This document shows, piece after piece, positions 3,994 through 50,201 of a stretch of 64,000 nt of DNA. The notes under the pieces are model-generated. The model saw nothing but the letters and a program-made list of their open reading frames with translations, was not told where the DNA came from and ran no database searches. The stretch is taken from assembly GCA_945901855.1 (NCBI GenBank), contig CAMDLT010000021.1, positions 764 to 64,763 of the forward strand. The letters run 5' to 3'. The position numbers were made by a program, and so were the translations under genes. This DNA is from Asaia bogorensis (GTDB lineage: Bacteria; Pseudomonadota; Alphaproteobacteria; CACIAM-22H2). How positions within the stretch are numbered: the first letter of the stretch is position 1; each line of letters opens with the position of its first letter.

Positions 3994-4016
3994 AGAACAA
4001 AAAAGGGAGAGAAACC

Positions 4017-7032: not shown

Positions 7033-7405
7033 GCGTTTCGAGCCGGGGCCACACGGCGTTTGCGGGTTTTCAGTCGCGCTCCTCCAGCCAAATGTGCCCG
7101 ATCGCGCGTCAGTATTGCGCGGCATCTCCCACATCCTGCAACGTATGCATATCCCTTGGATCGCGACTTGGGCTGCAGTCCGTTCCGTTAGCGCACCGTC
7201 GAACAAGGCCTATCTTCGTCTGGAAAGCGGTCGGACTTTCTTGGTGAATTGTCGAGCGCTGGCGGCGCCGCGACGGGGAGCCGACCGCTGCGACGCGGCG
7301 TCGGCTCTCAAAAAGTTCACGAAACCGCAACATGCTTCGAACGCATGCTTGGTACCTCCGTTGGATACGCGCCCGCGTTGGGCACGTCGAATCGGAGAAA
7401 TACTC

Positions 7406-8644: not shown

Positions 8645-8711
8645 AGGCGAACCGGGCGGCGGCAGATCCGCTCGCCGCCCGGATTTCCCTTCGTCGCACC
8701 TGGCCATTTCG

Positions 8712-10411: not shown

Positions 10412-10450
10412 ACGCGGTTGCGGCAGCGCTGCAAAGGGACGACAAGCGCG

Positions 10451-31068: not shown

Positions 31069-33174
31069 ATGGCAAGCGAAGAAGAAGAACTTCAGGGCAT
31101 CTTTTTCCTCGAATGCGAGGAACTGCTTGCCAGCGCCGAACAGAGCGTCGAAACGCTGCGCGAAGGCGACGGCTCCGACGATGCGATCCACGCGCTGTTC
31201 CGGTCGGTCCACTCCATCAAGGGCGGGGCCGGCGCCTTTGGCATGGACAAACTCGCCAAGTTCGCGCACGCGTTCGAATCCTATATGGATCTGCTGCGCA
31301 AGGGGCGCGCCGAACTTGACGCGACCGCCGTCAAGTTGCTGTTCGACGGCGTCGACGTGCTGCGCATGCTGGTCGAAGAATCGCAGCACGGCACGCCCGC
31401 GCCGGCCGTTCGCTACGATGCGGCGTTTGCAGCACTGCGTGCGGCGGCGGGCCTCGACGATGCGCCCGCCGACGAACTGGCGCCGGGCGCGGATTTCGAT
31501 CCGATGGCGGCGTTCGTCGCCGAAGCGGCCGCCGCAGAAGCGGCGGCGCCCACGACGCGCTACAAAATCCGGTTTGTGCCGGGCCCCGGGTTGCTTGCGG
31601 CAGGCGTCGATCCGCTGCGCATCCTGGGCGCGCTCAAAGCGATGGGCAGTTTGGCGGTCGAAATCGACGCCAGCACCGTGCCGGCACTGGCCGATCTGGA
31701 GCCCGGCGTTTGCCATTTCGCGTGGTCGCTGGCGCTCGACACGGCAGCGCCGTTCGCCGATCTCGACGAAATTCGCGAGATGATCGACGATTTGGCAGTT
31801 TTCGAAATCGAAGCCCCACCCCCACCCGAAACGCCCCCACCCGAAACGCCCGCGCTCGAAACGCCCTTGCTCGAAACGCGGGCGCCCGAGCTGCAAGCGC
31901 CGGTCGCAAGCGGCGCCAAGCCGTCCGCAGCGCCAGCCCATGCGGCACGCGAAAAACCCGTCGCGACCGTGCGCGTCGACGTGCCGAAACTCGAACGGCT
32001 GGGCAATATGGTGGGCGAGCTCATCATCACCCAGGCGTTTTTGGCGCGTCAGGCCAGCGGCCTCGATCCCGACGCGCATCGCCGCCTGTTCCGCGCCCTC
32101 GACGACATGTCGCAGCATATTCGCGACCTTGCCGATGCGGCGACATCGATCCGCGCGCAACCGCTGAAGGTCGTCTTCTCGCGCTTCGGGGCCGTGGTGC
32201 GCGATCTGGAAAAAAGCACGGGCAAACGCATCCGCCTGGAAATCGAGGGCGATTCGACCGAAATCGACAAAACGGTCGTCGAACGGCTCGGCGAACCGCT
32301 GACGCACCTGATCCGCAATTCGATCGACCACGGCATCGAATCGCCGGAGAAGCGCGAAGCGGCGGGCAAGGATCCGGTCGGTCGGCTGCGTCTGGCCGCC
32401 GAACAGCGCGGCAGCCAGGTCGTGATCGAATTGTCCGACGACGGGGCGGGCGTCAATCGGCCGCGCGTCCTCAAAATCGCGATCGAGCGCGGCCTGGTCG
32501 CGCAAGGCGCGACGCTCGCCGACGACGAAATCGACGCGTTGATTTTTCTGCCCGGCTTCTCGACCGCCGATTCCGTGACGTCGGTGTCCGGGCGCGGCGT
32601 CGGCATGGATGCCGTGCGCCAGTCGATCGGCGAGATGGGCGGGCGCGTGGCGTTGGGCTCGACGCCGGGCAAGGGCACGGTGTTCTCGCTCTATCTGCCG
32701 CTGTCGCTGGCCGTGCTCGACGCGATGGTGACGCTCGTCGCGCGCAACAACTACCTGATCCCGCTCGGCGACATCGTCGAAAGCCTGCGCCCGACCGCCG
32801 CCATGATCGTGCGCCTCGACCGCAACCGCGCCATGCTGGCATGGCGCGGGGCGATGGTGCGAATCCTGGTGCTGGGCGAGGAATTCGACGTGCCGGATTT
32901 TGTCGCCGAGCCGACCGAGTGCATTTTGGTCGTGGTGCGCGCGGCAGGCGGCGAGATGCTGGCCTTGCAGGTCGACGATCTGATCGGGCAGGAACCGGTC
33001 GTGGTCAAAAGCCTCGAAAAGAATTTCCGCAAAGTGGCGGGCCTGTCCGGCGCCACGATTTTGGGCGACGGGCGGCCTGCCCTCATTTTGGACCCGCAAT
33101 CGTTGGGCACGGCCGGCGCACGGCGCAAACGCCTCGAAGCCCAGAACGATCCCGCGAGCGAGCAAGGGACATAG
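31069..33174 (+). CDS. cheA: Chemotaxis histidine kinase CheA
   Basis: HPt domain with HSIKGGAGAFG, a P2-like region, a Pro-rich linker, the HATPase domain, and a C-terminal CheW-like domain. Confidence 0.95.
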   Translation: MASEEEELQGIFFLECEELLASAEQSVETLREGDGSDDAIHALFRSVHSIKGGAGAFGMDKLAKFAHAFESYMDLLRKGRAELDATAVKLLFDGVDVLRMLVEESQHGTPAPAVRYDAAFAALRAAAGLDDAPADELAPGADFDPMAAFVAEAAAAEAAAPTTRYKIRFVPGPGLLAAGVDPLRILGALKAMGSLAVEIDASTVPALADLEPGVCHFAWSLALDTAAPFADLDEIREMIDDLAVFEIEAPPPPETPPPETPALETPLLETRAPELQAPVASGAKPSAAPAHAAREKPVATVRVDVPKLERLGNMVGELIITQAFLARQASGLDPDAHRRLFRALDDMSQHIRDLADAATSIRAQPLKVVFSRFGAVVRDLEKSTGKRIRLEIEGDSTEIDKTVVERLGEPLTHLIRNSIDHGIESPEKREAAGKDPVGRLRLAAEQRGSQVVIELSDDGAGVNRPRVLKIAIERGLVAQGATLADDEIDALIFLPGFSTADSVTSVSGRGVGMDAVRQSIGEMGGRVALGSTPGKGTVFSLYLPLSLAVLDAMVTLVARNNYLIPLGDIVESLRPTAAMIVRLDRNRAMLAWRGAMVRILVLGEEFDVPDFVAEPTECILVVVRAAGGEMLALQVDDLIGQEPVVVKSLEKNFRKVAGLSGATILGDGRPALILDPQSLGTAGARRKRLEAQNDPASEQGT

Positions 33175-35576: not shown

Positions 35577-35962
35577 CCAACGCCCGCAGTTTGCGCGTCC
35601 TCGTCGTCGACGATCAGGGCAGCATGCGCATGCTCGTTCGCAGCTATCTTCGCAAACTCGGCTTCGAATCGATCGACGAAGCCGAAAGCGGCCAAGCGGC
35701 GCTGAAGGAGCTGCAGAACCGGCCCTACAATCTGGTCATTTCGGACATCAACATGGATGGCGGCACCGGCCTCGATCTGCTGAAGGGCATGCGCGCGCAC
35801 CCTGTTCTCAAGCGCACGCCCGTCATCATGGTCACGGGAAATTCCGACAAAGCCACGGTCGCCGCGGTCGTGCAGGCGGGCGTCAACGGCTACGTCGTCA
35901 AGCCCGTGTCGCTTGAGGCGCTCAAGGCGCGCATCCTGCATATTCTGGGCCCCCTTACTTGA
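35573..35962 (+). CDS. cheY: Chemotaxis response regulator CheY
   Basis: The ATG at 35573 overlaps the cheB stop. Single REC domain (LVVDDQGSMR...ISDINMDGGTGLDLLK...KPV). Confidence 0.85.
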   Translation: MTNARSLRVLVVDDQGSMRMLVRSYLRKLGFESIDEAESGQAALKELQNRPYNLVISDINMDGGTGLDLLKGMRAHPVLKRTPVIMVTGNSDKATVAAVVQAGVNGYVVKPVSLEALKARILHILGPLT

Positions 35963-35981
35963 GCTTGCGGAAGCGAACGAC

Positions 35982-38081
35982 ATGAAAATCTCCACCAAAC
36001 TTTCGGGTCTGATCGTCGTCGCATCGCTGCTGTCGGCGGGGCTGTTCGGGTATCTAACCTACCTTGCGCATGTCGCGCTCAATGCCGAGGAGCGCGTGAT
36101 TGCGGGCTCGACCTATGCCGGGCCGATGCGCGATCTGGGCGAGGCGATCTACCGGCACAAGCTCAATATGCTTAAAAATGTCGGCGTGGCTTCCCCCGAC
36201 AATGACGGGCTCGCGCGCGCCAAGGAAACGATCCGCGCGGTGCTTGTGCGCATCGACGCGCTCGATGCGCGCACGCAGGCAAAATTCGGCACGGCGCCCG
36301 CGGCCCCCGGCCTCAGGCCCGCGATCGAGCGCATACTGGCGCTGCGCCATGGGCCGACGCAAAATTCCGCCAATGTCATCGAGTTTCACGAAGCGACCTT
36401 CGCGCAGTACCGCGAATTGACTTTTTCCGCCGCCGACACGTTCGAGATTTTGGGCGATCCGGACGTCGATTTTGTTTTGATGTTCCAGAACCAGATCGAA
36501 GTCTATCCCAACATCCTGATGTCGCGCGCGTATCTTGCGGGCCGCTCGTTCGTTTTCGACGAAACGGCGAGCGGGCGTTTTGCGCATACCGAAACGCTGC
36601 AGATCCAGATCAACCGGCTGATCGAGCAGCAGGGCGTGATCGCCGAAAACATGCGCCGCCTGACGCGCAATGTGGGCCGCGCCGAGAAAGTGCAAGGCAA
36701 CGGGCGCGACTGGACCAATCGCGCGCCCATCGCAGCGGCGCTGGCCGAGCGCTCGCAGCGCCTGGAGAACGGCTATCTCGCCGCTCTCAACAAATCGCCT
36801 TCGCCGGTGGGCTCGGTCATGGTCGGCGAAGAAGAGATGTTTTTGGCGACGCTCCTCGACGGCTGGCGCTCGCTGACAACGCAAGTTGATCGCGCGCTTG
36901 CCGATCGCATGGTGGCCAATACGCGCACCTTCTATTTGCAGACTGGCTTGCTGGCGATAAGCCTGCTCGTGCTGTTCGGCGCGATGAGCCTGGGCGTTCG
37001 CGGCGTGTCGCGCGACATCGAAGCGACCAACGCGCTTACCATGCGCATCGCCAAGGGCGAGCTCGACGTGGTCGTGCCGGGCACGGACCGGCCCGACGAA
37101 ATCGGCGGACTGGCGCGCTCGATCGAAATCTTGCGCAGGAATTCGCTGGCGCAGCGCGAACTCCAGCAAAAAGAGCGCGAGACCGCCCGGCATCTGGCCG
37201 ATACGGCCGCGCGCGTGGCCGATTCGGTGGATGCGATCCGCGCGGCAGCCAGCGAAATTTCGCAAGGCAGCAACGACCTTGCCACGCGCACCGAGCGCCA
37301 GGCGTCGGCCCTGCAGCAGACCGTCGCGACGATGGCGGAAATTTCGGCAACCGTTTCGACCAACGCGCTCAATTCCGACCAGGCGCGCAAATTGGCCGCC
37401 GACGCGCTGGGACGCGCCGAAGGCGGCGGCCATGCGGTCACCAGCGTGGTCACGGCCATGTCGGGCATCGAAGCCTCGTCCGCGCGCATTGCCGCAATCA
37501 TCCAGGTGATGGAAGAAATTTCGTTCCAGACCAAACTGCTCGCGCTCAATGCGGCCGTCGAAGCCGCGCGCGCGGGCGAAACGGGCAAGGGCTTTGCGGT
37601 GGTCGCCCAGGAAGTGCGCTCGCTCGCCGACCGCTCGCGCCAAGCCTCGCAGCAGATCCGCGATCTGATCGCCGAGAGCACGCGCGAAGTGGGCCAGGGG
37701 GTGCAATTGGCGGGGGCGGCAGGCGAGGCGCTGGGCACGATCATCGAGATCGTGCGCAAGGTTGCCGACATTGCGCCCGAAATCGCGGCCGGCAGCCGCG
37801 AGCAGGCGCGCAGCATCACCGAGATCAACAAGGCGCTCGGCGATCTCGACGCCGCGACGCAGCAGAACGCTGCCTTGGTCGAACAAAGCTCGGCCTCGGC
37901 CGCGTCGCTGGCCGAACAAGCGGGCCAGCTTGTCGAAGTTGTATCGAGCTTCCGCGCCGATGGCGGGGCGGACGGGGCGGCGAAGCCAGCACCGGCCGCC
38001 GCGCCCAAGGCGGCGGCGCCAAAAACGGTTGCGGCGAAAAAAGCGCCCGCACGCGACGCCGACTGGGACGAGGAGTTCTAA
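35982..38081 (+). CDS. Methyl-accepting chemotaxis protein
   Basis: ATG at 35982. N-terminal TM segment, a periplasmic region, HAMP, and the MCP signalling domain (NALNAAVEAARAGETGKGFAVVAQEVRSLA). Confidence 0.9.
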   Translation: MKISTKLSGLIVVASLLSAGLFGYLTYLAHVALNAEERVIAGSTYAGPMRDLGEAIYRHKLNMLKNVGVASPDNDGLARAKETIRAVLVRIDALDARTQAKFGTAPAAPGLRPAIERILALRHGPTQNSANVIEFHEATFAQYRELTFSAADTFEILGDPDVDFVLMFQNQIEVYPNILMSRAYLAGRSFVFDETASGRFAHTETLQIQINRLIEQQGVIAENMRRLTRNVGRAEKVQGNGRDWTNRAPIAAALAERSQRLENGYLAALNKSPSPVGSVMVGEEEMFLATLLDGWRSLTTQVDRALADRMVANTRTFYLQTGLLAISLLVLFGAMSLGVRGVSRDIEATNALTMRIAKGELDVVVPGTDRPDEIGGLARSIEILRRNSLAQRELQQKERETARHLADTAARVADSVDAIRAAASEISQGSNDLATRTERQASALQQTVATMAEISATVSTNALNSDQARKLAADALGRAEGGGHAVTSVVTAMSGIEASSARIAAIIQVMEEISFQTKLLALNAAVEAARAGETGKGFAVVAQEVRSLADRSRQASQQIRDLIAESTREVGQGVQLAGAAGEALGTIIEIVRKVADIAPEIAAGSREQARSITEINKALGDLDAATQQNAALVEQSSASAASLAEQAGQLVEVVSSFRADGGADGAAKPAPAAAPKAAAPKTVAAKKAPARDADWDEEF

Positions 38082-38088
38082 CGCGCCG

Positions 38089-38796
38089 CTATCTGTCGTC
38101 GCGGGCGAGCTGTTTGTGCTCCATGGCGCCGTAGGCTTTGCCGTAATGCGCTTCGATGCGGCGCTGCACGAAATCCCAGCACGTGGTCATCGACAGATAG
38201 AGAATGGCCACGACCATAAACACTTCGAGCACTTCGAAGCGCTGCTGCATCAGAATTTGGCCGCGCCGCAGCAGCTCTTCCATCGAAATGACCGACGCGA
38301 TCGACGTCGCCTTGAGCAGGCCGTTGACCGAGTTGCCGAGCGGCGGAATGATCACGCGCAGCGCCTGCGGGAAAACCACCTTGCTGAAGATATGCAAGGG
38401 TCGAAGGCCGAGCGAGCGCGCAGCCTCCGTCTGGCCCTTGGCGACCGACAGGATGCCGCCGCGCAAAATCTCCGACAGATACGCCGCCTCGTTGAGCGCA
38501 AGGCCGATCAGCGCCGATTCGAGCACGCTCAAGCGCACGAGCCCCAATTGCGGCAGACCGGTATAGATGATGATGAGCTGGACCAGCAGCGGCGTGCCGC
38601 GAAAGATCCAGATATAGGTCTGCGCCGCGCGGTCGAGCCATTTGGATTTCGACATGCGCATGGCCGCAAGGCCGAGCCCGAGCAGAAATCCGAACACCAG
38701 CGTGTTGGCGGTCAGCGCCAACGTCCACAACGCGCCTTCGAGCAGATACGGGTTGAGGAAATAGGTCCAAAACCCGTCCCAGTTCCAAACTTTCAT
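38089..38796 (-). CDS. Polar amino-acid ABC transporter permease (HisM/HisQ family)
   Basis: BPD_transp_1 with the EAA loop GQTEAARSLGLRPLHIFSKVVFPQA, 235 aa. Confidence 0.85.
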   Translation of the reverse strand: MKVWNWDGFWTYFLNPYLLEGALWTLALTANTLVFGFLLGLGLAAMRMSKSKWLDRAAQTYIWIFRGTPLLVQLIIIYTGLPQLGLVRLSVLESALIGLALNEAAYLSEILRGGILSVAKGQTEAARSLGLRPLHIFSKVVFPQALRVIIPPLGNSVNGLLKATSIASVISMEELLRRGQILMQQRFEVLEVFMVVAILYLSMTTCWDFVQRRIEAHYGKAYGAMEHKQLARDDR

Positions 38797-38830: not shown

Positions 38831-39697
38831 TCAGACCGGTCCCGGACCGTTGATCGAGAAGGTCGACTCGGGCATTTTCAGCACGCCATAGCGGTCGAAC
38901 AGCGTGTCGTAATACCCGTCTTTCTTGAGGTCGTTGAGCGCGCCGACCACGGCTTCGGCAAGCGTTTTGTTGGCGAACGCGAATGTCGCGGTCTGCGGGA
39001 ACACGCCGCTGACCGCGCGCGTGAAGTCGCCGCGCTGCTGCATGAACATCGCCGTCGCATCGATGCTGGTTGCGGCATCGACTTGGCCCGCGCGCAGCGC
39101 CTGGAAAGCTTCGGCGAAATTGTTGAAAGTACGCACTTCGACCGGACGCAAGCCTTCCTTGACCAGAATTTCGCTGACCTCGCGCGTGCGGCGCTCTTCG
39201 ATGCCGCCCAGCTCCACCGAGACGCGGCGCCCGGCCAGATCCTGAATCTTGGAAATGCCAAGAGGATTGCCGCGCGCGGCCAGGAAGCTGACGGCGGCCT
39301 GTTCGTAAGGCACCATGTACATCAGCTTCGAGCGTTCTTCGGTCCAGAAGATGCCGGTGTTGATCATGTCCCAACGCTTGGCCGCAAGGCCCGGCACCAT
39401 CGCCGCAAATTCGATGCGCACATATTCGGGCGTCAGGCCCAAACGCTTGGCGATTTCATTGCCGAGTTCCACGCGCATGCCCTGCAGCTGGCCGCGATCG
39501 TCGACGAATTGCAGCGGCGGCAGGGTCGGGTTGATCGACATGACCAGCGTACCGGCCTTGATGATGTTGGGCGGGGCGATTTTCGCCTGCGCCTTGGCAA
39601 GCTTGGGAAGGGCTGCAAGCGTGGCGGCTGCAGCACCTGCGGCGATCAGGCTGCGGCGGTCGAGAGCGACGGCGCCGAATTTGGATTTTTTGGACAT
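38831..39697 (-). CDS. Polar amino-acid ABC transporter substrate-binding protein (SBP family 3)
   Basis: Tat-like signal DRRSLIAAGAAAATLAALPKLAKAQA and an SBP_bac_3 body. Confidence 0.85.
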   Translation of the reverse strand: MSKKSKFGAVALDRRSLIAAGAAAATLAALPKLAKAQAKIAPPNIIKAGTLVMSINPTLPPLQFVDDRGQLQGMRVELGNEIAKRLGLTPEYVRIEFAAMVPGLAAKRWDMINTGIFWTEERSKLMYMVPYEQAAVSFLAARGNPLGISKIQDLAGRRVSVELGGIEERRTREVSEILVKEGLRPVEVRTFNNFAEAFQALRAGQVDAATSIDATAMFMQQRGDFTRAVSGVFPQTATFAFANKTLAEAVVGALNDLKKDGYYDTLFDRYGVLKMPESTFSINGPGPV

Positions 39698-39738
39698 CTT
39701 TGGTCTCCCCTTGAGTGGCGAACGGAATGAAAGCGATT

Positions 39739-39774
39739 CAGGTGAAATTCCAGGTGAAATTCCAGGTGCAATTC
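39739..39774. repeat. Three tandem 12-bp direct repeats (CAGGTGAAATTC x2, CAGGTGCAATTC) in the promoter region of the amino-acid SBP gene
   Basis: Read directly from 39739-39774. It lies 42-77 bp upstream of the SBP start on the minus strand, between the DapA-family stop and the SBP start. Confidence 0.7.
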
Positions 39775-39788
39775 GGGCGCCAACTCGC

Positions 39789-40679
39789 TCAGGGCGCGAC
39801 GAGTCCGAGCGCGGCGAGGTCTTTGCGCAAAATTTCGGCGTCGCTTGCGACCAGCGGCAAACGCGGCGGGCGCGGCGGGCCCACCGGGCGGCCCATCATG
39901 TTGAAACCGGCCTTGGTTGCCGACACGTAGCGCTGCCCGCCGACCCAGCGCACGATCGGCAGAATTTTTTTGTAGAGCGCCAAGGCGGCCGGCTGGTCGC
40001 GCTGGTCGGCGACGAGTTCGAACAGCTTTGCGGAATCTTTGGGCAACAGGTTCGAGCACACGGCAACCCATCCTTGCGCGCCGAGCCAGAACGATTCGTA
40101 GCCCAAAATGCCCGCAAACACGGTCATTTTGTCGCCGCACAGCTCGATAATGTCGCGCACCCGCGTGACTTCGAGCGTCGATTCCTTGATGTAGCGCACA
40201 TTGTCGATGGCCGACAGGCGCTTGACCGTTTCGGGCCGCATGTCGACATTGGCGGTCGCGGGGTTGTTGTAGATCATGATCGGAATGCCGATCGACTCGC
40301 CGATGCGTTTGTAGTGCTGGAACAGCTCGTCCTCGGTCGGCGTCGAATAGAAAGGCGGGATGATTATCACGCCGTCGGCGCCCAACTTTTCGGCGCGCTT
40401 GGAAAGCCGTACCGATTCGAGCGTGTTTTCGGCCCCCGTCCCAATCAGCACGGGCACGCGCCCGCGCGCGGCCTTGATCGCGGTCGCTGCAACCGCTTCG
40501 GCTTCCGCGTCGGTGAGCGACAAAAATTCGCCCGTCGAGCCCAGCGGGATAAGCCCGTGGATGCCCTCTTTGATTTGCCAATCGACCAGATCGGCCAGTG
40601 CCGCGAAATCGACCGCGCTGCCGTCCTCGGTGAACGGCGTGATCAAAACGGTATAGGTACCCCGGAACGGCTTCGACAT
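39789..40679 (-). CDS. DapA / dihydrodipicolinate synthase family lyase (DHDPS-like aldolase or deaminase)
   Basis: TPFTEDGSAVDF...GIHGLIPLGSTGE...YNNP with a Schiff-base lysine region, 296 aa. Confidence 0.8.
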   Translation of the reverse strand: MSKPFRGTYTVLITPFTEDGSAVDFAALADLVDWQIKEGIHGLIPLGSTGEFLSLTDAEAEAVAATAIKAARGRVPVLIGTGAENTLESVRLSKRAEKLGADGVIIIPPFYSTPTEDELFQHYKRIGESIGIPIMIYNNPATANVDMRPETVKRLSAIDNVRYIKESTLEVTRVRDIIELCGDKMTVFAGILGYESFWLGAQGWVAVCSNLLPKDSAKLFELVADQRDQPAALALYKKILPIVRWVGGQRYVSATKAGFNMMGRPVGPPRPPRLPLVASDAEILRKDLAALGLVAP

Positions 40680-40753
40680 TTTTCAATCCAACTGTATGAT
40701 CTTGTAGATCAATATTGGCGCTTGATGGGCACCTTGCGCAAGAGCGGGATTGT

Positions 40754-41776
40754 ATGGCCGATATAACCACGGTTTTGGGACCCGTTCCGGCCGACGCGCT
40801 GGGGCTGATCCTGCCGCACGAGCATATTCTGTGCGATCTGACGCCGCTCGATCTGCGCAACCCCGCGATCGCCGACACGCCGCTTTCGCTCGGCAACGCG
40901 CATGCGGTCGCCTATCGGCCCAACGATCACAAAGGCAACCACCGCCTGACCCAGATCGCGGTCGCGCACGGCGAACTGGCCGCGTTCAAACAAGCGGGCG
41001 GCAGCACGATTTTCGAACTCTCGACGATCGGCATTGCGCCCGATCCGGCAGGTTTGGCGGAACTTTCGCGCGCAACGGGCGTTGCGATCGTCGCGGGGGC
41101 CGGTTTCTACACCGCCCCCTTTATCGATGCCGAGATCCGCGAACGCGACGTCGCGTGGCTCGCCGACCAAATCGCCACGCAAATTCATGTCGGCATGAAC
41201 GGCACCGATATCAAAGCCGGAATCATCGGCGAGGTTGGTTGCAGCTGGCCGTTGGCAGATTTCGAGCGCAAATCGCTGGCGGCAAGCGCCATCGCCCAGC
41301 GCGGCACCGGACTTGCGATCAACATCCATCCCGGCCGCGATCCGCAAGCCCCGCACGAGATTTTGGATATCCTGGAGCGTGCGGGCGCCGATCCCGCGCG
41401 CGTGGCGTTCAGCCATATCGACCGGACCTATTTCGACTATCCGGCGATTGCGGCACTGGCCGCGCGCGGCTGCTGGATCGAGTTCGATTTTTTCGGCATC
41501 GAGACCTCGAACTACTGGATGGGCGTGGCCGACCTGCCGACCGACTGGATGCGCTTGCGCTATATCCGCCAGCTGATCGGCGACGGGTTCGGCAAGCGCG
41601 TCTTGCTCTCGCACGACATTTGCACGCGCTCGCGTCTGGCGGCCTATGGCGGCCACGGCTACGCGCATCTGCCCGCCAACGTGCCGGGCCTGATGCGCGA
41701 CCGGGGTTTTGGCGACGGCGAAATCGCGATGCTGATGTGCGACAATCCGCGCCGCTTTGTAACGGGAGAAGATTGA
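40754..41776 (+). CDS. Phosphotriesterase (PTE) family amidohydrolase
   Basis: ATG at 40754. LILPHEHILCDL (HxH metal site) and later His/Asp ligands, with TIM-barrel length. Confidence 0.75.
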   Translation: MADITTVLGPVPADALGLILPHEHILCDLTPLDLRNPAIADTPLSLGNAHAVAYRPNDHKGNHRLTQIAVAHGELAAFKQAGGSTIFELSTIGIAPDPAGLAELSRATGVAIVAGAGFYTAPFIDAEIRERDVAWLADQIATQIHVGMNGTDIKAGIIGEVGCSWPLADFERKSLAASAIAQRGTGLAINIHPGRDPQAPHEILDILERAGADPARVAFSHIDRTYFDYPAIAALAARGCWIEFDFFGIETSNYWMGVADLPTDWMRLRYIRQLIGDGFGKRVLLSHDICTRSRLAAYGGHGYAHLPANVPGLMRDRGFGDGEIAMLMCDNPRRFVTGED

Positions 41777-41777
41777 G

Positions 41778-42659
41778 ATGGCGGGCGAACCGATTCTTTA
41801 CTGCAACGGCGCCTATGTGCCCGAAAGCCAGGCGCGGCTGTCGGCGTTCGATTTGGGCGTGCAGTTCGGCGACGGCGTGTACGAGGTGGTGTCGGCCTGG
41901 AAGGGCCTCGTCTTCCAGCTCGACGCGCATATCGCCCGCTTGAGCGATACGCTGCACGCCGCGCGCATCGATACCGGCATCGATGCGGCGGGCTGGCGCG
42001 ACATCGTGTGCGAAACCGCGCGGCGCAACGGCCTCGCCGATGCCGCGATCAAAATCATCGTCACGCGCGGCCTGCTCGCCCCCGGCAACGGCGATCCGCG
42101 CGCGGCAACGCCCAGCGTGCGCGCATTTGCCACGCCCTATGCGCATCTGGGCTCGGCCGAGCAGCGCGCGGGCGGCATTCGTCTGCAGATCGGCCACCAG
42201 CGCGGCATGTCGCCCGATACGCTGGACCCGCGCTACAAACATACGGCGCGCCTGCAATACCAGCTCGCCAAGATCGAAGCGCTCGATTCGGGCTACGACG
42301 ACGTGGTGTGGCTGTCGGCGCAAGGCTTTGTCGAGGAAGCGCCGCGTTCGAATATTTTTCTGGCGAAAAACGGCGTGTTGCGCACGCCCGCCTTGGGCGT
42401 GCTGCACGGCATCACGAGGCGCACGTTTTTCGAACTTGCCGCAGAACTGCGCATTCCCGTCGAGGAAGGTGCAGTGACCGCGTTCGATCTGTTTGTCGCC
42501 GACGAGGTTTTTACCTGCTCGACCTCGGGGGCGGCGCTTGGCGTGCGCGAAGTGGCGGGACGCCGGATTCGCGGCGGCGCGCCGGGGCCGCTGACGGACA
42601 AGCTCAACGCGCTCTATTGGCAAAAACGCGAAGCGGGCTGGCACGGGACAAAGCTTTGA
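41778..42659 (+). CDS. Class IV aminotransferase (branched-chain / D-amino-acid aminotransferase family)
   Basis: PLP fold-type IV features (GDGVYEV..., ...EAPRSNIF...), 293 aa. Confidence 0.8.
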   Translation: MAGEPILYCNGAYVPESQARLSAFDLGVQFGDGVYEVVSAWKGLVFQLDAHIARLSDTLHAARIDTGIDAAGWRDIVCETARRNGLADAAIKIIVTRGLLAPGNGDPRAATPSVRAFATPYAHLGSAEQRAGGIRLQIGHQRGMSPDTLDPRYKHTARLQYQLAKIEALDSGYDDVVWLSAQGFVEEAPRSNIFLAKNGVLRTPALGVLHGITRRTFFELAAELRIPVEEGAVTAFDLFVADEVFTCSTSGAALGVREVAGRRIRGGAPGPLTDKLNALYWQKREAGWHGTKL

Positions 42660-45571
42660 CGCGCCGCCTCGACAGCAGCCGCGTGCGCCGCGTCGGCGCA
42701 ACGCAACGCATCCGGTTCGACGGGCGCGAGATCGAAGCGCTGGCAGGCGAAAGCGTCGCCGCTGCGTTGGCGGCCGCGGGCATTCGCACGCTGCGCAAGA
42801 CGCGCTTGGGCGCGCCGCGCGGCGTGTGGTGCGGCATGGGCGCATGTTTCGAATGCGTCGTCGCCATCGACGGCAAACCCGAGCAGCGCGCGTGCCTGGC
42901 CAAAGTCGAAGACGGCATGGACATACGCTCGGCCGCGCCCGACACGCCCGCAGCGCTGGCGCCTGCGCCGACAAGCGCACCCGAACGGCGCCAGGTCGAT
43001 GTGCTGGTGATCGGCGGCGGGCCGGCCGGCTTGCACGCGGCGCGCGTTGCGGGCGAAGCGGGCTTGCGCGTGGTGCTGCTCGACGAGCGCCCGGCCCCCG
43101 GCGGCCAGTATTTCAAACCGCTGGGACCCTCGCACGCTTTTGCGGCAGGCGGGGCCGACAAACAGTTTCTGGCCGGCGCCGCGCTTGTCGCAGCGACGCT
43201 TGCGGCGGGCGTTACGATCTTCAGCGGGGCCGTCGTGTGGGCCGCGTTTTCGGCGGACGAAATCGGCGCGCTGATCGACGGGCGCTCGATGCTGTTCGCC
43301 GCCAAGAACATCGTCGTCGCGGCGGGCGCGTACGAGCGGCCTGTCCCCATGCCGGGCTGGACCTTGCCGGGCGTTTCGACCACGGGTGCCGCCCAAACGC
43401 TTGCCCGCAGCTATCGCGTGGCGCCGGGTCTGCGCACCATCGTTGCGGGCAACGGACCGCTCAATCTGCAAACCGCGCTGGAGCTGGTCGAGGGCGGCGC
43501 CCGCGTCGTCGCGGTCGTCGAAAGCGCGCCGCGTCCGGGTTTGTCGCGCCTGCGCGATGCGTGGCGTTTGGCGATGGCCGCCCCCGACCTTGCCGTCGAC
43601 GGCATCGCGATGCTGCGCAAACTTGCCGCCGCCAACGTGCCGATCTTGTGGGGCCGCACGGCGCTCGCGGCCGAGGCCGACGCCAACGGCGAGTTTTCGG
43701 CGCTTGTGCTCGACGACGGCACCCGTCTTGCGGGCGAAGCGCTGGCGCTTGGATATGGCTTTGCGCCGTCCAGCGAAATCGCGCGCCAATTGGGCGTCGC
43801 ACATCGTTTTGTCGATCGCCATGTCGGCTATCTTGCCGCGATTGCCGACGACGACGGCAGCTGCAACGTGCCGCATGTCCATGTCGTGGGCGACGGCGCC
43901 GAGATCGGCGGATCGCGCATCGCGGCCGCACGCGGCATTTTGGCGGGCGCGGCGATCGCAGGCCACGCAGCGCCGCCCGAAACCGTGCGCGAATTGGCGC
44001 GCGCGCGTCGTTTCCAAGAAGCGCTGTGGCGGCTGTATGCGCAAGCGCCCTTCGATGCCGCGTCGCTTGCCGACAGCACGACCGTATGCCGCTGCGAAGA
44101 CGTGAACGCGGGTGCCGTGCGCGCCTGCCTCGATGCGGGTTCGGCGTCGCTTGGCGCCATCAAGCGCCATACGCGCGCGGGCATGGGGCGCTGCCAAGGG
44201 CGCAATTGCGCGGCAACGCTTGCGCGCTTGGTACAAAGCCGCACGGGCGCGCTGCCCGGCGAATACGATTTTTTCGCGCCCCGCGTGCCCGCCAAGCCCG
44301 TGCCGGTCGCAGCCCTTGCCGTCGAGCAGGGCGAATGGGGCGGCCACAAACAAGTCGAAGCGCCGTTGCCGATCGTCGCGCGCACCAGGCTTGCGCACGC
44401 GCAAGAAAAGCGCGCGCGCAGCTGCGACGTGCTGGTGATCGGCGGCGGCGTTTTGGGCGCGTCGTGCGCGCTGGGCCTTGCCAAAGCGGGCGTCGATGTC
44501 GTCGTGGCCGAACGCGACGAGCCCAATTTGCAGGCGTCCGGCGCCAATGCCGGCAGCTTGCATGTGCAGCTGTTGTCGTTCGATTTCGGCGCCAAGGCGC
44601 AAGCGGGCGGCGGGCCTGCCGCACAGACATTGGTGTTGGGCCCGGCCGCGATCGCGCTCTGGCGCCAGATCGAACGCGACTGGGGCCGGGATCTGGAGAT
44701 CCGCACGACCGGCGGTTTGATGGTTGCCGAAACCGACAAGGACATGGCGTTTCTGGCAGCCAAGGTCGCGCTCGAAAAATCCTACGGCATCGAGTGCGAG
44801 GTGATCGGCGCGAACGAGCTGCGCGCCCTCGCGCCCGCTTTGTCGCAACGATTGATCGGCGCCGCCTATTGCCCGAGCGAGGGCAAGATCAATCCCGCCA
44901 TCGCGACCTACGCGGTGGTCGGACTTGCCGAGCGGCACGGCGCGCGTTTCGAAAACGGCACGCAGGTCGAATCGATCGCGCGCGTGCCCGGCGGTTTTCG
45001 CGTGGTCGCGTCGAACGGCACGATCGACTGCAAGCGCATCGTCAATGCGGCCGGCCCTTGGAGCGCGCGCATCGGCGCCATGCTGGGCATCGACGTGCCG
45101 GTCAAGGGCGCGCCCTTGCAGATTGTGGTCACCACCCCCGGCCCCAAGATCGTCGCGCAATTGATCGCGCATGCCGACCGGCATCTGACGCTGAAGCAAG
45201 CCGACACCGGCGGCTTCATCGTGGGCGGCGGCTGGACGGCCGCATCCGACCCCGCCACGGGCCTGCCGCGCGTGCTGCGCGGATCGATGGAAGGAAATCT
45301 GTGGGTGGCGCGACGCGTTATTCCCGCCCTCGATGGCTGCAACGTGCTGCGCGGCTGGGCGGCGATGAACGTCAATCTGGACGGCGCGCCGCTGGTGGGC
45401 GAGGTCCCCGGCGAGCCGGGATTTTTCAACGCCGTCACATCGAACGGCTACACGCTCGGCCCCATCGTCGGGCAGATGACGGCCGATCTGATGTGCGGCC
45501 GCGATCCCGGATTCGACGTTACGCCGTTTTCGATCCGGCGTTTCGGCGCTGGAGCAGGGCCAGCAAACTGA
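42656..45571 (+). CDS. Three-domain fused oxidoreductase: N-terminal [2Fe-2S] HcnA/OoxA-like domain, then an FAD/NAD pyridine-nucleotide-disulfide oxidoreductase with a BFD-like [2Fe-2S] (HcnB/OoxA-like), then an FAD-dependent DAO-type oxidase (HcnC/OoxB-like)
   Basis: Single open frame. Probable TTG start at 42656 overlapping the upstream stop, with an alternative GTG at 42683; there is no in-frame ATG before the first domain. Motifs, in order: CGMGACFECVV; DVLVIGGGPAGLHAARVAGEAGLRVVLLDE; BFD-like TVCRCEDVNAGAVRACLDAGSASLGAIKRHTRAGMGRCQGRNC; CDVLVIGGGVLGASCALGLAKAGVDVVVAE. About 970 aa. Confidence 0.7.
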   Translation: MTRRLDSSRVRRVGATQRIRFDGREIEALAGESVAAALAAAGIRTLRKTRLGAPRGVWCGMGACFECVVAIDGKPEQRACLAKVEDGMDIRSAAPDTPAALAPAPTSAPERRQVDVLVIGGGPAGLHAARVAGEAGLRVVLLDERPAPGGQYFKPLGPSHAFAAGGADKQFLAGAALVAATLAAGVTIFSGAVVWAAFSADEIGALIDGRSMLFAAKNIVVAAGAYERPVPMPGWTLPGVSTTGAAQTLARSYRVAPGLRTIVAGNGPLNLQTALELVEGGARVVAVVESAPRPGLSRLRDAWRLAMAAPDLAVDGIAMLRKLAAANVPILWGRTALAAEADANGEFSALVLDDGTRLAGEALALGYGFAPSSEIARQLGVAHRFVDRHVGYLAAIADDDGSCNVPHVHVVGDGAEIGGSRIAAARGILAGAAIAGHAAPPETVRELARARRFQEALWRLYAQAPFDAASLADSTTVCRCEDVNAGAVRACLDAGSASLGAIKRHTRAGMGRCQGRNCAATLARLVQSRTGALPGEYDFFAPRVPAKPVPVAALAVEQGEWGGHKQVEAPLPIVARTRLAHAQEKRARSCDVLVIGGGVLGASCALGLAKAGVDVVVAERDEPNLQASGANAGSLHVQLLSFDFGAKAQAGGGPAAQTLVLGPAAIALWRQIERDWGRDLEIRTTGGLMVAETDKDMAFLAAKVALEKSYGIECEVIGANELRALAPALSQRLIGAAYCPSEGKINPAIATYAVVGLAERHGARFENGTQVESIARVPGGFRVVASNGTIDCKRIVNAAGPWSARIGAMLGIDVPVKGAPLQIVVTTPGPKIVAQLIAHADRHLTLKQADTGGFIVGGGWTAASDPATGLPRVLRGSMEGNLWVARRVIPALDGCNVLRGWAAMNVNLDGAPLVGEVPGEPGFFNAVTSNGYTLGPIVGQMTADLMCGRDPGFDVTPFSIRRFGAGAGPAN

Positions 45572-46268
45572 ACGTCGAATAATCGACCGGATCGCCGCCG
45601 GGGCCGACCGCACGCCCGTCGATGCGCAGGCGGCACGCGCCCGGATCGGCGTCGAAATCCAGCTCGTGCTGCGTCGCGTCGGTCGCGGGATCGGCGATCA
45701 GCTGAAGTTCCGTGCGATCGAGCCCGAGACCCGCCAGCGCCGCGCCGACCGCGACGTTCAGGTTGTGCGGAAACAAGCGCGCCACCGCGCGCGCCGAGCC
45801 TTCGAAAAATACGCGCCGTTCGGCGATGGCGCCAAGATCGGCCAACGCCACCGCGGGCGTTCGCGCCCACATCGCGGGCGATTTGATCTGGCGATAGACG
45901 ACGCGCTTAAGTCCGCCCAGGCGCGCCGCACGCAAAATTTCCAGCGTGCCGAGGGCGCCCGGCGGCATATCGAGTTTGCCGGGGCCCGCTTCCAGCAATC
46001 GCCGCTCGGTCTGCGGATCGCAGAACGCCGTCAGCGACAGCGGCGCAAGGTCGATCCCCGCCGCCAAAATGCGCGGCCCCCAATCGCCCAGCGTTTGGGG
46101 CGACGCGCATTCGACGACGATGTCGGGTCGCAAGGCCAGCAGCGCGGCAAAATCGCGCGCCGGGGCGCCGACGAACAGCGGGCCTGCGGCATCGCGTTGG
46201 AGCAGATCGCAGAGGCGCGTGCCGATCCGCCCGAGCCCGACAATGGCAACGCGCAACCGGCCGTTCAT
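45519..46268 (-). CDS. Aspartate dehydrogenase domain-containing protein (NadX-like)
   Basis: ATG at 46268 (MNGRLRVAIVGLGRIGTRL...), Rossmann N-terminus, about 249 aa. Its 3' end overlaps the 3' end of the fusion oxidase by 53 bp on the opposite strand. Confidence 0.65.
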   Translation of the reverse strand: MNGRLRVAIVGLGRIGTRLCDLLQRDAAGPLFVGAPARDFAALLALRPDIVVECASPQTLGDWGPRILAAGIDLAPLSLTAFCDPQTERRLLEAGPGKLDMPPGALGTLEILRAARLGGLKRVVYRQIKSPAMWARTPAVALADLGAIAERRVFFEGSARAVARLFPHNLNVAVGAALAGLGLDRTELQLIADPATDATQHELDFDADPGACRLRIDGRAVGPGGDPVDYSTFSLLALLQRRNAGSKTA

Positions 46269-46545
46269 GGCCGTTGCGACGTCGGCAGCACAAGCGCCAG
46301 GCGCTTGCTGAGGCGCGCATTGTCCGCAAACGCAGGCGGCGCAAAATTTGCGGCGATCCGGAACGGCCAAAAAAATACGCGCATGCAAACACCTTGATGC
46401 TGGAACTTTTCGCGCTCGACGGTAAGGCAGTGCATGTCGATTCGCCAACAGGCGATTCGCGCGGCAATTCCCTAGATCGGCTGTAAGGTTTGTCCTAGTC
46501 TCGATTCAAATCGACGGCCTCAGCACTTTCGAACGGACCGCACGC

Positions 46546-48750
46546 GTGACCGATCTGGCCCCTGTAATTTCGCCGCCAACGGCACGCAGCTTGCGGACGC
46601 GGGCGGGGCCGCTGGCAATCTTGGCGATTGGGCTTGGCGCGTCGGCATTGGCGGCATGGCTGCTCGTGCTCGACCAGCGTGCCGACGATCAGCACCGCCT
46701 GGTCGCGCAAAGCGAACGGTTTGTCGCTGCCCTTGGCAACCATCTGCAAGTCTATGAAACCGCCATGGCGAGCGGCGCGGCGCTGTTCGCCGCATCGAAG
46801 GACGTTGCGCGCGACGCGTGGGGCACCTATGTGCGCGAAACGAAGGTCCGCGAACGGCTGCCGGGGAACCAGGCGCTTGGCTATGCGGCCTACGTGCCGG
46901 CACCCGAGCGCGCGGCGCATGTGGCGGCGATGCGCGCCGACGTTGGCGACAGCTACGACATTCGCCCGCCGGGGGCGCGCAGCGCCTATGTGCCGATCGT
47001 GTTCAACGAACCCTATGTCGGGCGCAATCGCACGGTGGTGGGGTTCGACATGTACGGCGAAGCCACGCGCCGCGCGGCCATCGACAGCGCCATCGCGTCG
47101 CGCCGGGCGACGATGTCGGGCAAGGTCGTTCTGGCGGGCGAAAGCGGCGACGACCGGCCGCCCGGCTTTGTGATCTACGCGCCGATTTTCAATTCGGCCG
47201 ATGGCCCGCCGATGGGGTTTGTTTTCGGCCCCTTCCGCATGCCTGATTTGATGGCGGGCTTGTCGAAAAGCTGGGACTCGGCGCTGAGCATCCGCATCTA
47301 TGACGGGCGCACGCTGGACGAGGCAGCATTGCTCTTCGCCTCGAAGACCGCCAGCGCCGCCCTTCCGACGCACGCGACCGTCATCGAAACGCTCGGGCGC
47401 GAATGGACGATCGCGGTATCGGCCGGACCCGCCATCGGCAATCGCAGCGACGCGTGGGTTCCGGCGCTGGTGCTGGCGTTGGGCGCGGCCTTGAGCCTGC
47501 TGATCTTCGGTCAGGCGCGCAGCTTGGTTGCGATCCGCGCCCAGGCGGACGATCTGGCGCTGGCCAAAGCGCAGGCCGAAGCCGCCGACCGCGCCAAATC
47601 CGCGTTCGTCGCCACGGTCAGCCACGAAATTCGCACGCCGATGAACGGCATCATGGGCATGGCAGGCTTGCTGCTCGACCGCGATCTGACGGCCGAGCAG
47701 CGCGGTTTTGCGCTCGCCATTCGCGCATCGAGCGAGAGCCTGCTGCAAATCGTCAACGACGTGCTCGATCTTTCCAAACTGACGGCCGACCGGCTGACGC
47801 TCGAGCGCGTCGCGTTCGATCCGCGCCAGACGCTGGGCGACGCGCTCGAGGTCGTGCGCCCGCACGCCGATGCCAAGGGTTTGGCGCTGAAGGTCGCGTT
47901 CGCCGACAACGTGCCCGCGCGCGTCGAAGGCGATCCGGGCCGGTTGCGCCAAGTGGCGCTGAACTTGCTGTCGAACGCGGTCAAATTCACCGAAAGCGGG
48001 AGCGTGCAGCTCGCGCTCGCGCGCGACGAAACGTCGCCGGCCGCGTCGCAAACGGTCGCCTTGACCATCCTTATCAGCGACACCGGCATCGGCATCGCCG
48101 CCGACCAGGTGCCGCACCTGTTCGAAGATTTTGTCCAGGCCGACGCGTCGGTCGCGCGCCGCTTCGGCGGCACGGGCCTGGGGCTTGCGATCGTGCGGCG
48201 ATTGGTCGAACGCATGGGCGGCAGCATCGACGTGCAAAGCGAGCTTGGCCGCGGCAGCGTCTTTTGCGTGCGGCTTGTTTTGCCCGTGGCCGCCGCCATC
48301 GCCGGCCCCGCCGACGACACGGCGTTTGCACGGGGGAGCGCGCGTCTGGCGGCTTGTTCGGCAGCGCTGGGACGACCCTTGCGCGTGCTGTTGGCCGAAG
48401 ACAACCCGACCAATCGCATCGTCGCGATCGAACTGCTGAAGCCGCATCCGGTGCGCGTCGATGCGGTGGCCAACGGCCGCGAAGCGGTCGAAGCCGTGCG
48501 CACGGCACCCTACGATGCCGTGCTGATGGACGTAAACATGCCGGAAATGGATGGGCTGGCCGCCACGCGCGCGATCCGCACGCTGGCGGGCGAGGCCGGG
48601 CGCGTGCCGATCGTGGCGGTCACGGCCGCCGCGTTCGACGGCGATCGCGAGCGCACCAAGATGGCGGGGATGACGGGCTATCTTGCCAAGCCCTATCGCA
48701 TCGCGGCCCTGCTGGAAGCGCTGGCGGCGGCCGTCGAAACGCGCGTCTAA
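46546..48750 (+). CDS. Hybrid sensor histidine kinase with a periplasmic CHASE domain
   Basis: GTG start at 46546. TM segment, a CHASE-like region ([25 protein letters not shown]...), second TM, HisKA ([14 protein letters not shown]), HATPase_c, and a C-terminal REC ([10 protein letters not shown]...DVNMPEMDG). Confidence 0.85.
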
Positions 48751-50201
48751 GCCGGATCGGGCAACAAGATTTCGCGCGCGTCGAAGGCAGCAAGGCTTGC
48801 GGCCAGCCCGCCCGCCTGTTCCAAAAAGAAGCTGCGCGCCAGACCGCGCGTCAAGCGCGGCAGCGAAAATTTATGGCCGCTGATCGACGTGCATTGGCCG
48901 CCATGGCTGACGCTGGCCGAGAAACTGAAACACTGGATGTTTGCAAGCCACGGCGCGGTGCCGGGCCGTTTTTCGAGAAACTCGAACGCCGGTCCCAAAT
49001 AGGGCGCCGCCCCCAGCCCCGCATGCGTTTGGTCGGCCGGCGGCGCGTAGCGATCGGCCCACAGCGCAATGTCGCCGCACAGATCCGCAAGTTCGGGGCG
49101 CAGCGCCAGATCGCTCGCAAGGCCGGTGGCGCAGATCAGAAAATCGGCGTCGATCGCGCCCGTCGCCGTCCGCAGGCTGAGCGCGCCGTTCCGATGCTCG
49201 ATCTGCTGCCAATCCGCGCCGGGGCGCACGCCAAAATTGGGATAGGCGCTGGCCGCCGCGACGCCGTTTTTGGTCGGCGGCTGGTCCAGCACGCGAAACA
49301 TGTAGCCAAGCTGCCAGCGCAGCGCGTCGGGCAGGTCGTAAAAATGGTCGAGGAATCCTGCAAACTCCGCCCAGCGATGCGGGTTGATTTCGGGCAGCTT
49401 CGGGCGCCGGAAACATAGATCGACCGACGCGGCGCCGTTGTCCAGCGCATAGGCCGCATTGTCGAACGCCGACGCGCCGTGGCCCAAAATCGCGACGCGC
49501 TTGCCCGCGATTTTTTCGCGCGGCAGCGGTCCGTTCGAATGGGCCCACAACGCCGGATCGACGGTGTTTTTGACCACGCCCGGCACGTCCCAAGCGCCGC
49601 TGCCTTCGAAGCCGGTCGCCAGCACCACGCGCCGCGCATGGACGGCGAATTCGCCGTCGGACGTTTGGCACTGCAGCTTGAAGCCGCCCGCGACCGGCTC
49701 GATCCGCGCAACGCTGGTCGCGTAGCGAATTTCGGGCTCGGTCACGTCGGCATACCAGTCGAGATAGGCCGCCCAATGCACGCGTGCGATACGCTCCAGC
49801 CCCTGCCAGGCAGGCGCGCCGAACTGCGCTTCGTACCAGGCGCGGAAGCCAAGCGCGGCGTGGCCGTATTCCAGCCCGACCAAATCTTTGGGGGTGCGCA
49901 ACGTGGCCATGCGCGCATAGCCAAGCCACGGCCCCGCATGGCCGCGCGCGGCGCGCTCCAAACACACCGTGTCCGCGATGCCCAGTCGCTTGAGGCCAAA
50001 TGCGATGCCGAGCGCCGATTGGCCGCCGCCGACGATCGCGACATCGCGGAAGCCCGCGCGCGGCTGCACCCAACCTTGCGCGGGGTAGGCCAGCGCCGCG
50101 ATTTCGGCGCGCGCGCGCGACGCCAAATGCTGCAAGGCGGGGCTTTTCAAATCGACGCTTGGGTATCCGTGCTGTTCGTAGCGCATGAAGTTCCTTGCCA
50201 A
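48747..50201 (-). CDS. FAD/NAD(P)-dependent oxidoreductase, probable flavin monooxygenase (SidA/IucD/PvdA-like dinucleotide motifs)
   Basis: FAD motif [17 protein letters not shown] and a second GxGxSA motif [14 protein letters not shown], 484 aa. Confidence 0.6.

Follow-up and report, generated by a model that had tools for sequence, protein, structure and literature searches.

We analysed a gene that lies at 42656-45571 on the + strand of a 64,000-nucleotide stretch of DNA from Asaia bogorensis (assembly GCA_945901855.1, contig CAMDLT010000021.1; the whole stretch is called the window below) and that encodes, in a single polypeptide of 971 amino acids (aa), the gamma-, alpha- and beta-like modules of three-subunit dehydrogenases. 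By its motifs, the fusion protein belongs to the kind of D-hydroxyproline dehydrogenase (D-HypDH), OpnDH (flavin-containing opine dehydrogenase), HcnABC and L-ProDH (L-proline dehydrogenase), all of them heterooligomeric flavin/iron-sulfur amine dehydrogenases, and by analogy it probably works like them. We consider it probable that the protein is a single-chain catabolic dehydrogenase that is linked to the respiratory chain and acts on an amino-acid derivative taken up by the cell; within this general reading, a compound other than a D-hydroxyproline-like or opine-like one takes the largest share.

The gene forms one uninterrupted frame of 971 codons followed by a TGA stop at 45569-45571, at the coordinates that an earlier note on this DNA, made from its letters alone, had given. 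Neither domain junction carries a stop or a frameshift, the faults for which that note had proposed a check, and the fused form recurs across genomes. Its reading of a non-ATG start overlapping the aminotransferase stop also held: the start is the TTG at 42656, within a TTGA shared with the end of the upstream class-IV aminotransferase gene, and P0131, a publicly deposited protein (NCBI/ENA/Logan) encoded on a 66.8-kb contig, shows 100% identity across all 971 aa, start included. The TTG/TGA overlap recurs in eight relatives with 69-79% identity (listed: the window itself and loci L004, L001, L007, L011, L008, L006 and L010), and the fusion genes of L009 and L058 start instead at an ATG two codons downstream. 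Translational coupling from the aminotransferase to the fusion is plausible, and would apply only to lineages with an aminotransferase gene upstream, which is found in 9 of the 36 loci that have at least 5 kb of flank on both sides (well-flanked loci).

The frame of the fusion gene is stop-free on the + strand from 42008 to the stop at 45571, in a fusion/aminotransferase region with a GC content of 65-69%. The first 648 nt of this open stretch (42008-42655), which lie inside the aminotransferase gene in another frame, are GC-rich read-through and non-coding; since the frame is open upstream of the real start, a naive call of the longest open reading frame (ORF) yields a spurious protein of 1187 aa. 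This is the only oddity that could be held to favour an artefact, namely a fusion created by a frameshift, a missed stop or an assembly join, and we regard the chance of such an artefact as negligible. The same continuous architecture was found in all 120 best relatives and at 71 genome loci, covering many genera and assemblies, so that a sequencing artefact is excluded; the identical 971-aa protein was deposited independently, and the AlphaFold2 model is confident across both junctions. Annotation should accordingly treat the fusion as one genuine gene and leave it unsplit.

All four Pfam domains of the fusion protein scored above their curated cut-offs (Table 1), and the invariance of motifs was judged in an alignment of 52 fused homologues with 54-92% identity to the window protein. 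The N-terminal gamma-like domain carries the ligand set C59-x4-C64-x2-C67-x12-C80 (nt 42830-42895) with all four cysteines invariant, and the CGMGACFEC motif singled out in the earlier note was located at aa 59-67. In the alpha-like module, the GxGxxG glycines G120, G122 and G125 are invariant, as is G265-N-G267 in a second dinucleotide site, A-G265-N-G267-P-L-N-L. The BFD-type ligands C478-x-C480-x32-C513-x4-C518 (nt 44087-44209) likewise have four invariant cysteines. The beta-like domain has its own GxGxxG, as had been claimed, in G596, G598 and G601, again invariant, together with R899-G-W901, an Arg-x-Trp whose R899 and W901 are invariant and which aligns with R-T-W of PH1364/1y56_B. The two stretches between modules are the least conserved and bear insertions and deletions, as expected for fusion joints or linkers. 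A block at aa 631-645 (NAGSLHVQLLSFDFG, nt 44546-44590) is 100% conserved in the 52 homologues, forms an insertion relative to 1y56_B and has the lowest confidence of any internal region in the AlphaFold model (predicted local distance difference test, pLDDT, 54-58); as a guess, it may be a clade-specific cofactor or interface loop.

The AlphaFold2 model, built on the 52-homologue alignment, had a mean pLDDT of 87.9 and a predicted template modelling score (pTM) of 0.89, with pLDDT falling to 65-72 at linker 2 (aa 571-588). When the model was compared with the Protein Data Bank (PDB) by Foldseek, with TM-scores normalised to the target, the N-terminal ~570 residues matched the N-terminal half of SoxA (1vrq_A, 2gag_A) and 1y56_A (TM-score 0.82), and the C-terminal domain matched glycine oxidase 4ysh (0.88), 1y56_B (0.85) and SoxB. 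A sequence search of the PDB concurred, relating the N-terminal part to 1y56_A and the SoxA N-terminal half and the C-terminal part to glycine oxidase, 1y56_B and SoxB. Among the structures searched, the three-subunit family is represented only by an archaeal L-proline dehydrogenase and by sarcosine oxidases. Pfam, the PDB sequence search and the fold search together bear out the order and identities of the domains that the earlier note had proposed.

Watanabe et al. 2015 (PMC4575208) described for OpnDH and for D-HypDH a pair of ADP-binding motifs, [2Fe-2S] motifs of two kinds and a beta Arg-X-Trp as the putative site of flavin mononucleotide (FMN). The characterised relatives, among which D-hydroxyproline dehydrogenase is named as one of the three-subunit members, contain two flavin adenine dinucleotides (FAD), one FMN and [2Fe-2S], the three-subunit assembly being alpha4-beta4-gamma4, and they are dehydrogenases, not oxidases, which reduce artificial acceptors and leave O2 unused (PMC4575208). 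These motifs are present in the fusion protein, with one spacer deviating, which supports the kinship with HcnABC, OoxAB and three-subunit D-hydroxyproline dehydrogenase that the earlier note had suggested. The opine dehydrogenases OdhABC, OoxAB and NoxAB and the bacterial D-hydroxyproline dehydrogenase LhpBEF are built of the same modules as the fusion, that is, a DAO-type beta, a Pyr_redox_2 alpha with C-x-C...C-x4-C and a gamma in which the cysteines are spaced C-x4-C-x2-C-x11~12-C. The fusion also shares with them the two GxGxxG motifs and the Arg-x-Trp of beta, both the known systems and the fusion are associated with an ABC (ATP-binding cassette) transporter, and the gene order OdhC-A-B of Burkholderia thailandensis is the module order of the fusion. 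On the other hand, LhpBEF and OdhABC consist of three separate subunits, whereas the window encodes one polypeptide. Since it lacks the defining feature of three separate subunits, the fusion is a variant and not an ordinary member of the D-HypDH/OpnDH/HcnABC/L-ProDH kind.

The closest solved complex is the alpha4-beta4 L-proline dehydrogenase of Pyrococcus horikoshii (1Y56), whose alpha chain corresponds to the N-terminal part and whose beta chain corresponds to the C-terminal domain of the fusion. The 1Y56 alpha chain already holds a gamma-like N-terminal region of ~120 residues and is thus a natural gamma-alpha fusion; the complex differs from the window protein in being archaeal and made of two chains, in its ~22% identity, and in a beta chain that lacks the aa 631-645 block. 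A second intermediate was found at locus L075 (JGI metagenome 3300000063, 3020-11107), where a gamma-alpha protein of 569 aa is encoded separately from a beta gene (376 aa) two genes downstream. Identity to the fusion is 43% over aa 3-540 for the gamma-alpha protein and 40% over aa 590-958 for the beta protein. This locus keeps the partners of the fusion, namely a DHDPS-family gene (49% identity) and, upstream, an SBP_bac_3 gene, two permease genes and an ATPase gene. It differs in that the DHDPS-family gene and a gene of the old yellow enzyme (OYE) family (Oxidored_FMN) lie between gamma-alpha and beta, and in having short-chain dehydrogenase genes. Taken with the archaeal gamma-alpha chain, L075 places the window protein at the end of a series that runs from three genes through gamma-alpha plus beta to gamma-alpha-beta. 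The heterotetrameric sarcosine oxidases SoxABDG (2GAG, 1VRQ) align in part: aa 8-556 of the fusion correspond to the N-terminal half of SoxA, and aa 587-966 to SoxB. The fusion matches only positions 167-599 of the 996 of the SoxA model, and the folate-binding C-terminal half, SoxD and SoxG are absent. Its sarcosine oxidase scores were far below the cut-offs (soxA 131.6 vs 1164, soxB 77.6 vs 529), and the same held for its score against every NCBIfam equivalog. Neither in these scores nor in sequence identity (~22% to the 1Y56 chains, 26.5% between its beta domain and OoxB) does the fusion come close to a characterised member.

A search of a database of 5.8 billion proteins, in which the 120 best of 1582 relatives were examined, returned full-length fusions of 953-1021 aa with the same domain set in all 120. 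The 71 loci with a fusion gene came from species-representative genomes and include Tagaea, Telmatospirillum, Reyranella, Roseomonas, Falsiroseomonas, Humitalea, Paracraurococcus, Phreatobacter, Geminicoccaceae and Burkholderiales, to which the protein search adds Variovorax, Acidovorax, Xenophilus, Verminephrobacter and Azospirillum. A 211-aa fragment spanning the alpha-to-beta joint (aa 470-680) was also compared with a set of 1.84 billion proteins, each representing a cluster at 50% identity. Of these, 48 matched at E<=1e-30, and ~60 of the 150 matches listed cover both sides of the joint; the weaker matches (571 at E<=1e-10, 3453 at E<=0.001) include many that are one-sided, alpha-only or gamma-alpha. 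The proteins already bear names in databases, such as 'FAD-dependent oxidoreductase' and 'D-hydroxyproline dehydrogenase subunit alpha' in RefSeq/JGI, and also 'glycine/D-amino acid oxidase-like deaminating enzyme/bacterioferritin-associated ferredoxin'. The complete fusion is therefore a minority architecture in the superfamily, yet an established, widespread and already annotated family. The earlier note had held such a fusion to be uncommon and had proposed a search for fused homologues; given their number in dozens of genera, its claim of rarity and novelty falls, as it had itself foreseen for the case of a common and already annotated family, while its annotation stands. To a specialist the fused architecture is unsurprising, because gamma-alpha fusions are known and homologues are abundant. 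Within its family, which the databases know and the literature covered leaves uncharacterised, the window gene is an ordinary case.

The neighbourhood of the fusion gene was compared among the 36 well-flanked loci. A substrate-binding protein (SBP) and a permease of an ABC transporter were encoded nearby in all 36, and a DHDPS-like protein in 35 (51 loci in an unbiased clustering); the fusion gene lies almost always divergently beside the genes of this protein and of the transporter. Less regular neighbours were an ABC ATPase (20/36), an M20 (ArgE/DapE-type) deacylase (16/36), an amidohydrolase of dihydropyrimidinase/hydantoinase type (14/36), an aspartate-dehydrogenase (AspDH)-like protein (12/36), and a phosphotriesterase (PTE)-like protein and the class-IV aminotransferase (9/36 each). 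This ranking was unchanged when every coding-like ORF of the loci was clustered without a preselected set of families. In the window, the + strand operon runs from a gene for a phosphotriesterase-related (PTER)-like protein (40754-41776) through the aminotransferase gene (41778-42659) to the fusion gene, which is last; the genes for the DHDPS-family enzyme, the SBP_bac_3 protein and the ABC permease are divergent on the - strand, and an aspartate-dehydrogenase-family gene is convergent downstream. What the accessory enzymes (PTER-like, hydantoinase-like, M20) have in common is that they hydrolyse amide bonds.

From these data and the analogy with characterised relatives we propose the following route. 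The adjacent ABC transporter would import the compound, and an amidohydrolase would free the amine from an N-acyl or cyclic-amide precursor, this role falling to the PTER-like enzyme here and to a dihydropyrimidinase/hydantoinase-like or M20 enzyme elsewhere. Next, the fusion enzyme would oxidise the amine, a step for which some lineages may use transamination instead. In the fusion enzyme, the C-terminal DAO-type domain is predicted to bind FAD and to oxidise the C-N bond of the amino-acid-like substrate to an imine, which would hydrolyse or stay cyclic. Electrons would pass by way of a flavin at the alpha/beta interface (FMN in characterised relatives), the alpha FAD and two [2Fe-2S] clusters (BFD-type and gamma-type) to an acceptor of the respiratory chain rather than to O2. 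Fusion would fix the modules in a 1:1:1 ratio and make an assembly step unnecessary. The DHDPS-family enzyme, with its lysine Schiff base, may process the resulting 2-oxo or cyclic imino acid. The data show that the gene is intact, which domains, conserved motifs and fold its product has, and which genes surround it; we infer cofactor occupancy, the electron path and dehydrogenase behaviour from relatives of known function, and the order of the pathway steps from gene context.

The DHDPS-like protein keeps the Schiff-base Lys (IKEST), has no Arg at the position of Arg138, the residue of the Y-N-x-P-x-R-T motif by which DapA binds aspartate semialdehyde (YNNPATAN vs YNxPGR(S/T) in DapA), and has as its closest solved relative 3NA8, which is PA0223 of P. 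aeruginosa, a protein without DapA activity (PMC3281039). Relatives are named 4-hydroxy-tetrahydrodipicolinate synthase by JGI, a deposited protein (P0136) is identical to that of the window, and the window protein narrowly passes the NCBIfam dapA model (208.8 vs 206.15). Identity with DapA was rejected, because the Arg138 position is replaced and the relative PA0223 is inactive. The neighbour should not be called DapA, and mis-annotation by automated pipelines is likely.

One alternative is that the fusion is a dehydrogenase for D-hydroxyproline, or a close cyclic D-imino acid, and that its DHDPS-family neighbour is a pyrroline-4-hydroxy-2-carboxylate deaminase, as in lhp. The core of the lhp cluster, which Watanabe is said to have described in 2012, reportedly consists of a dehydrogenase of alpha/beta/gamma type, an enzyme of the DHDPS family and an ABC transporter with an SBP_bac_3 protein, and this is the family make-up of the conserved trio found here. 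D-HypDH is, moreover, among the three-subunit relatives (PMC4575208), and JGI calls several orthologues 'D-hydroxyproline dehydrogenase subunit alpha'. The trio is accompanied, however, by no epimerase or alpha-ketoglutarate-semialdehyde dehydrogenase of the lhp type among the recurrent neighbours or the Pfam-scanned window genes (ORF clusters in <=6 loci being partly unannotated). The DHDPS-like protein is named as DapA-like by JGI, not as a deaminase, and its nearest solved relative is PA0223; hydroxyproline catabolism, moreover, has no place for the recurrent hydantoinase-like, M20 and PTER-like neighbours. We judge the D-hydroxyproline reading unlikely. In L076, an unannotated Sinorhizobium pSymB region taken as a source of hydroxyproline-pathway sequences for comparison, no DHDPS homologue was found.

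An opine-type dehydrogenase, which like OdhABC, OoxAB or NoxAB would cleave N-(carboxyalkyl) amino acids, which are secondary amines, to give an amino acid plus a 2-oxo acid, is quite improbable. It shares family and motifs with the fusion as well as the B. thailandensis module order, and opine catabolic loci also have ABC transporters (PMC4575208), but the beta domain, 97% of which could be aligned with Ti-plasmid OoxB, shows only 26.5% identity to it. Further, solved relatives of the SBP are only generic Gln/Arg/LAO-type binders, no opine synthase, arginase, ornithine cyclodeaminase or other opine-specific gene was found among the neighbours, and the conserved DHDPS partner does not occur in the opine loci of PMC4575208. 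A single-chain HCN (hydrogen cyanide) synthase converting glycine to cyanide appears very improbable: the HcnA/B/C-like modules are there and glycine oxidase is the best solved sequence match of the beta domain, but that match is weak (~106 bits), the beta domain reached 103 bits vs a ThiO cut-off of 250.8, and the conserved context is one of uptake and catabolism (ABC transporter, DHDPS-like protein, amidohydrolases) and not a stand-alone secondary-metabolism operon. Meso-diaminopimelate, beta-alanine/taurine, sarcosine from N-methylhydantoin, and homoserine lactone were considered as substrates and not adopted, as the evidence for them consists of family names only.

Several observations weigh against the fusion being a respiratory-chain-linked dehydrogenase for an imported amino-acid derivative. 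The spacer between the alpha-type cysteine pairs is 32 residues long in the fusion vs the 15-20 quoted for the split enzymes (PMC4575208). For cofactor binding and the electron acceptor we extrapolate from relatives; the one direct comparison, that of the beta domain with OoxB, gave the 26.5% identity stated above. No conserved electron-transfer flavoprotein (ETF), cytochrome or quinone-reductase partner was found near the fusion gene. In the window no ABC ATPase gene adjoins the cluster. The accessory amidohydrolases are frequent and not universal, several well-flanked loci being without any, and the pathway logic draws on gene adjacency only. A full-text search, to which most subscription journals are closed, found the 2015 paper on the split enzymes only and no publication on the fused form.

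Beyond the single-chain dehydrogenase itself, we tentatively suggest, at rather lower confidence, that the fusion, the non-DapA DHDPS partner, the ABC transporter and the interchangeable amidohydrolases make up a widespread undescribed catabolic pathway. It would act on some N-acylated or cyclic-amide derivative of an amino acid, and on neither hydroxyproline, a classical opine nor glycine. If this is true, the single-chain enzyme founds a new substrate class of its flavoenzyme family and is the first form tractable enough for structural work on the full electron path. The conserved gene set would mark a catabolic pathway in common freshwater and soil Alpha- and Betaproteobacteria. It is difficult to produce and purify the three-subunit enzymes (opine oxidases, D-hydroxyproline dehydrogenase, HCN synthase), and work on Oox/Nox has met decades of difficulty (PMC4575208). 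A natural single-chain form with a confident predicted fold offers a practical route to the structure and to the electron path FAD -> FMN -> FAD -> two [2Fe-2S].

Table 1 Positions of the fusion gene, its modules and adjoining features in the window
Feature	Position	Strand	Evidence or remark
Fused gamma-alpha-beta oxidoreductase gene	42656..45571	+	971 aa plus stop; TTG start; identical deposited P0131 with same start
TTGA start/stop overlap with upstream aminotransferase gene	42656..42659	+	4 nt; kept among relatives
Gamma-like Fer2_4 [2Fe-2S] domain, aa 18-93	42707..42934	+	Pfam 87.6 bits
Pro/Ala-rich linker 1, aa 94-112	42935..42991	+	Indels among homologues; conservation 0.61-0.64; 10 insertion columns at aa 98
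Alpha-like Pyr_redox_2 domain, aa 115-416	42998..43903	+	Pfam 99.3 bits
BFD-like [2Fe-2S] / SO_alpha_A3 domain, aa 476-555	44081..44320	+	Fer2_BFD 32.8 bits (cut-off 26); SO_alpha_A3 39.3 bits
Linker 2, alpha-to-beta fusion joint, aa 571-588	44366..44419	+	Least conserved internal stretch; conservation 0.43, gaps 0.19
Beta-like DAO flavoprotein domain, aa 591-945	44426..45490	+	Pfam 221.4 bits
PTER-type amidohydrolase gene	40754..41776	+	First in operon; Pfam PTE 217.7 bits
Class-IV (fold type IV) aminotransferase gene	41778..42659	+	Pfam Aminotran_4; best PDB match 7p3t, 325 bits
DHDPS-family Schiff-base enzyme gene	39789..40679	-	Conserved divergent partner; Pfam DHDPS 222 bits
Polar-amino-acid ABC transporter SBP gene	38831..39697	-	SBP_bac_3; 36/36 well-flanked loci
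ABC transporter permease gene	38089..38796	-	BPD_transp_1; 36/36 well-flanked loci
Aspartate-dehydrogenase-family gene	45519..46448	-	Convergent with fusion; near it in 12/36 loci
Sigma-70-like promoter match	40673..40700	+	TCGACA-16-TATGAT, 10/12 matches; in 74-bp divergent intergenic region

The PTER-type gene likely starts at the ATG at 40754; its ORF was listed from a TTG at 40715, and the L001 orthologue has 340 aa. The best PDB match of its product was 9efa, 'Phosphotriesterase-related protein' (280 bits over aa 15-350), whereas its alignment with classical parathion hydrolases and phosphotriesterases begins only at aa 88. In animals, PTER acts as a hydrolase of N-acetyltaurine and N-acetyl-beta-alanine (PMC11374699, PMC13311154), and by analogy the bacterial enzyme may share this role of an N-acyl-amine amidohydrolase. 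The entry 9efa appears to be the sponge PTER of a 2026 preprint, whose text does not contain the code. Literature searches with mostly no coverage of subscription journals found nothing relevant on 9EFA and nothing on 7P3T, the best match of the aminotransferase. In the Variovorax, Falsiroseomonas, Reyranella and Humitalea lineages, a dihydropyrimidinase/D-hydantoinase-type gene (3847-5301 in L002/L003; ~14-20 loci) stands beside the fusion/DHDPS/ABC core in place of the PTER-like gene of the window lineage; its protein scored 802 bits vs a cut-off of 647.

The promoter match upstream of the PTER-like gene is the only one in 39600-46700 and is weak evidence, because chance would be expected to yield 0.7 matches over this length. 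At the other end of the operon, the AspDH-family ORF and the fusion gene overlap by ~53 nt at their 3' ends (45519-45571), with the same spacing in L004 and L006, and no terminator-like site was found between the two; the real start of the AspDH-family gene probably lies ~60 codons inside the listed ORF. The ABC system of the window (35913-38796 region) comprises a binding protein and one permease, an ATPase gene adjoining the cluster in other lineages. A gene for a methyl-accepting chemotaxis protein (35913-38081, + strand) follows directly after the ABC genes, and a CheA gene lies at 31069-33174. Downstream of the fusion are genes for a CHASE-domain hybrid histidine kinase (46546-48750, + strand) and for a flavin-dependent protein resembling Lys/Orn monooxygenases (48747-50201, - strand), both of which are probably unrelated to the fusion, as they are absent from its recurrent neighbours.

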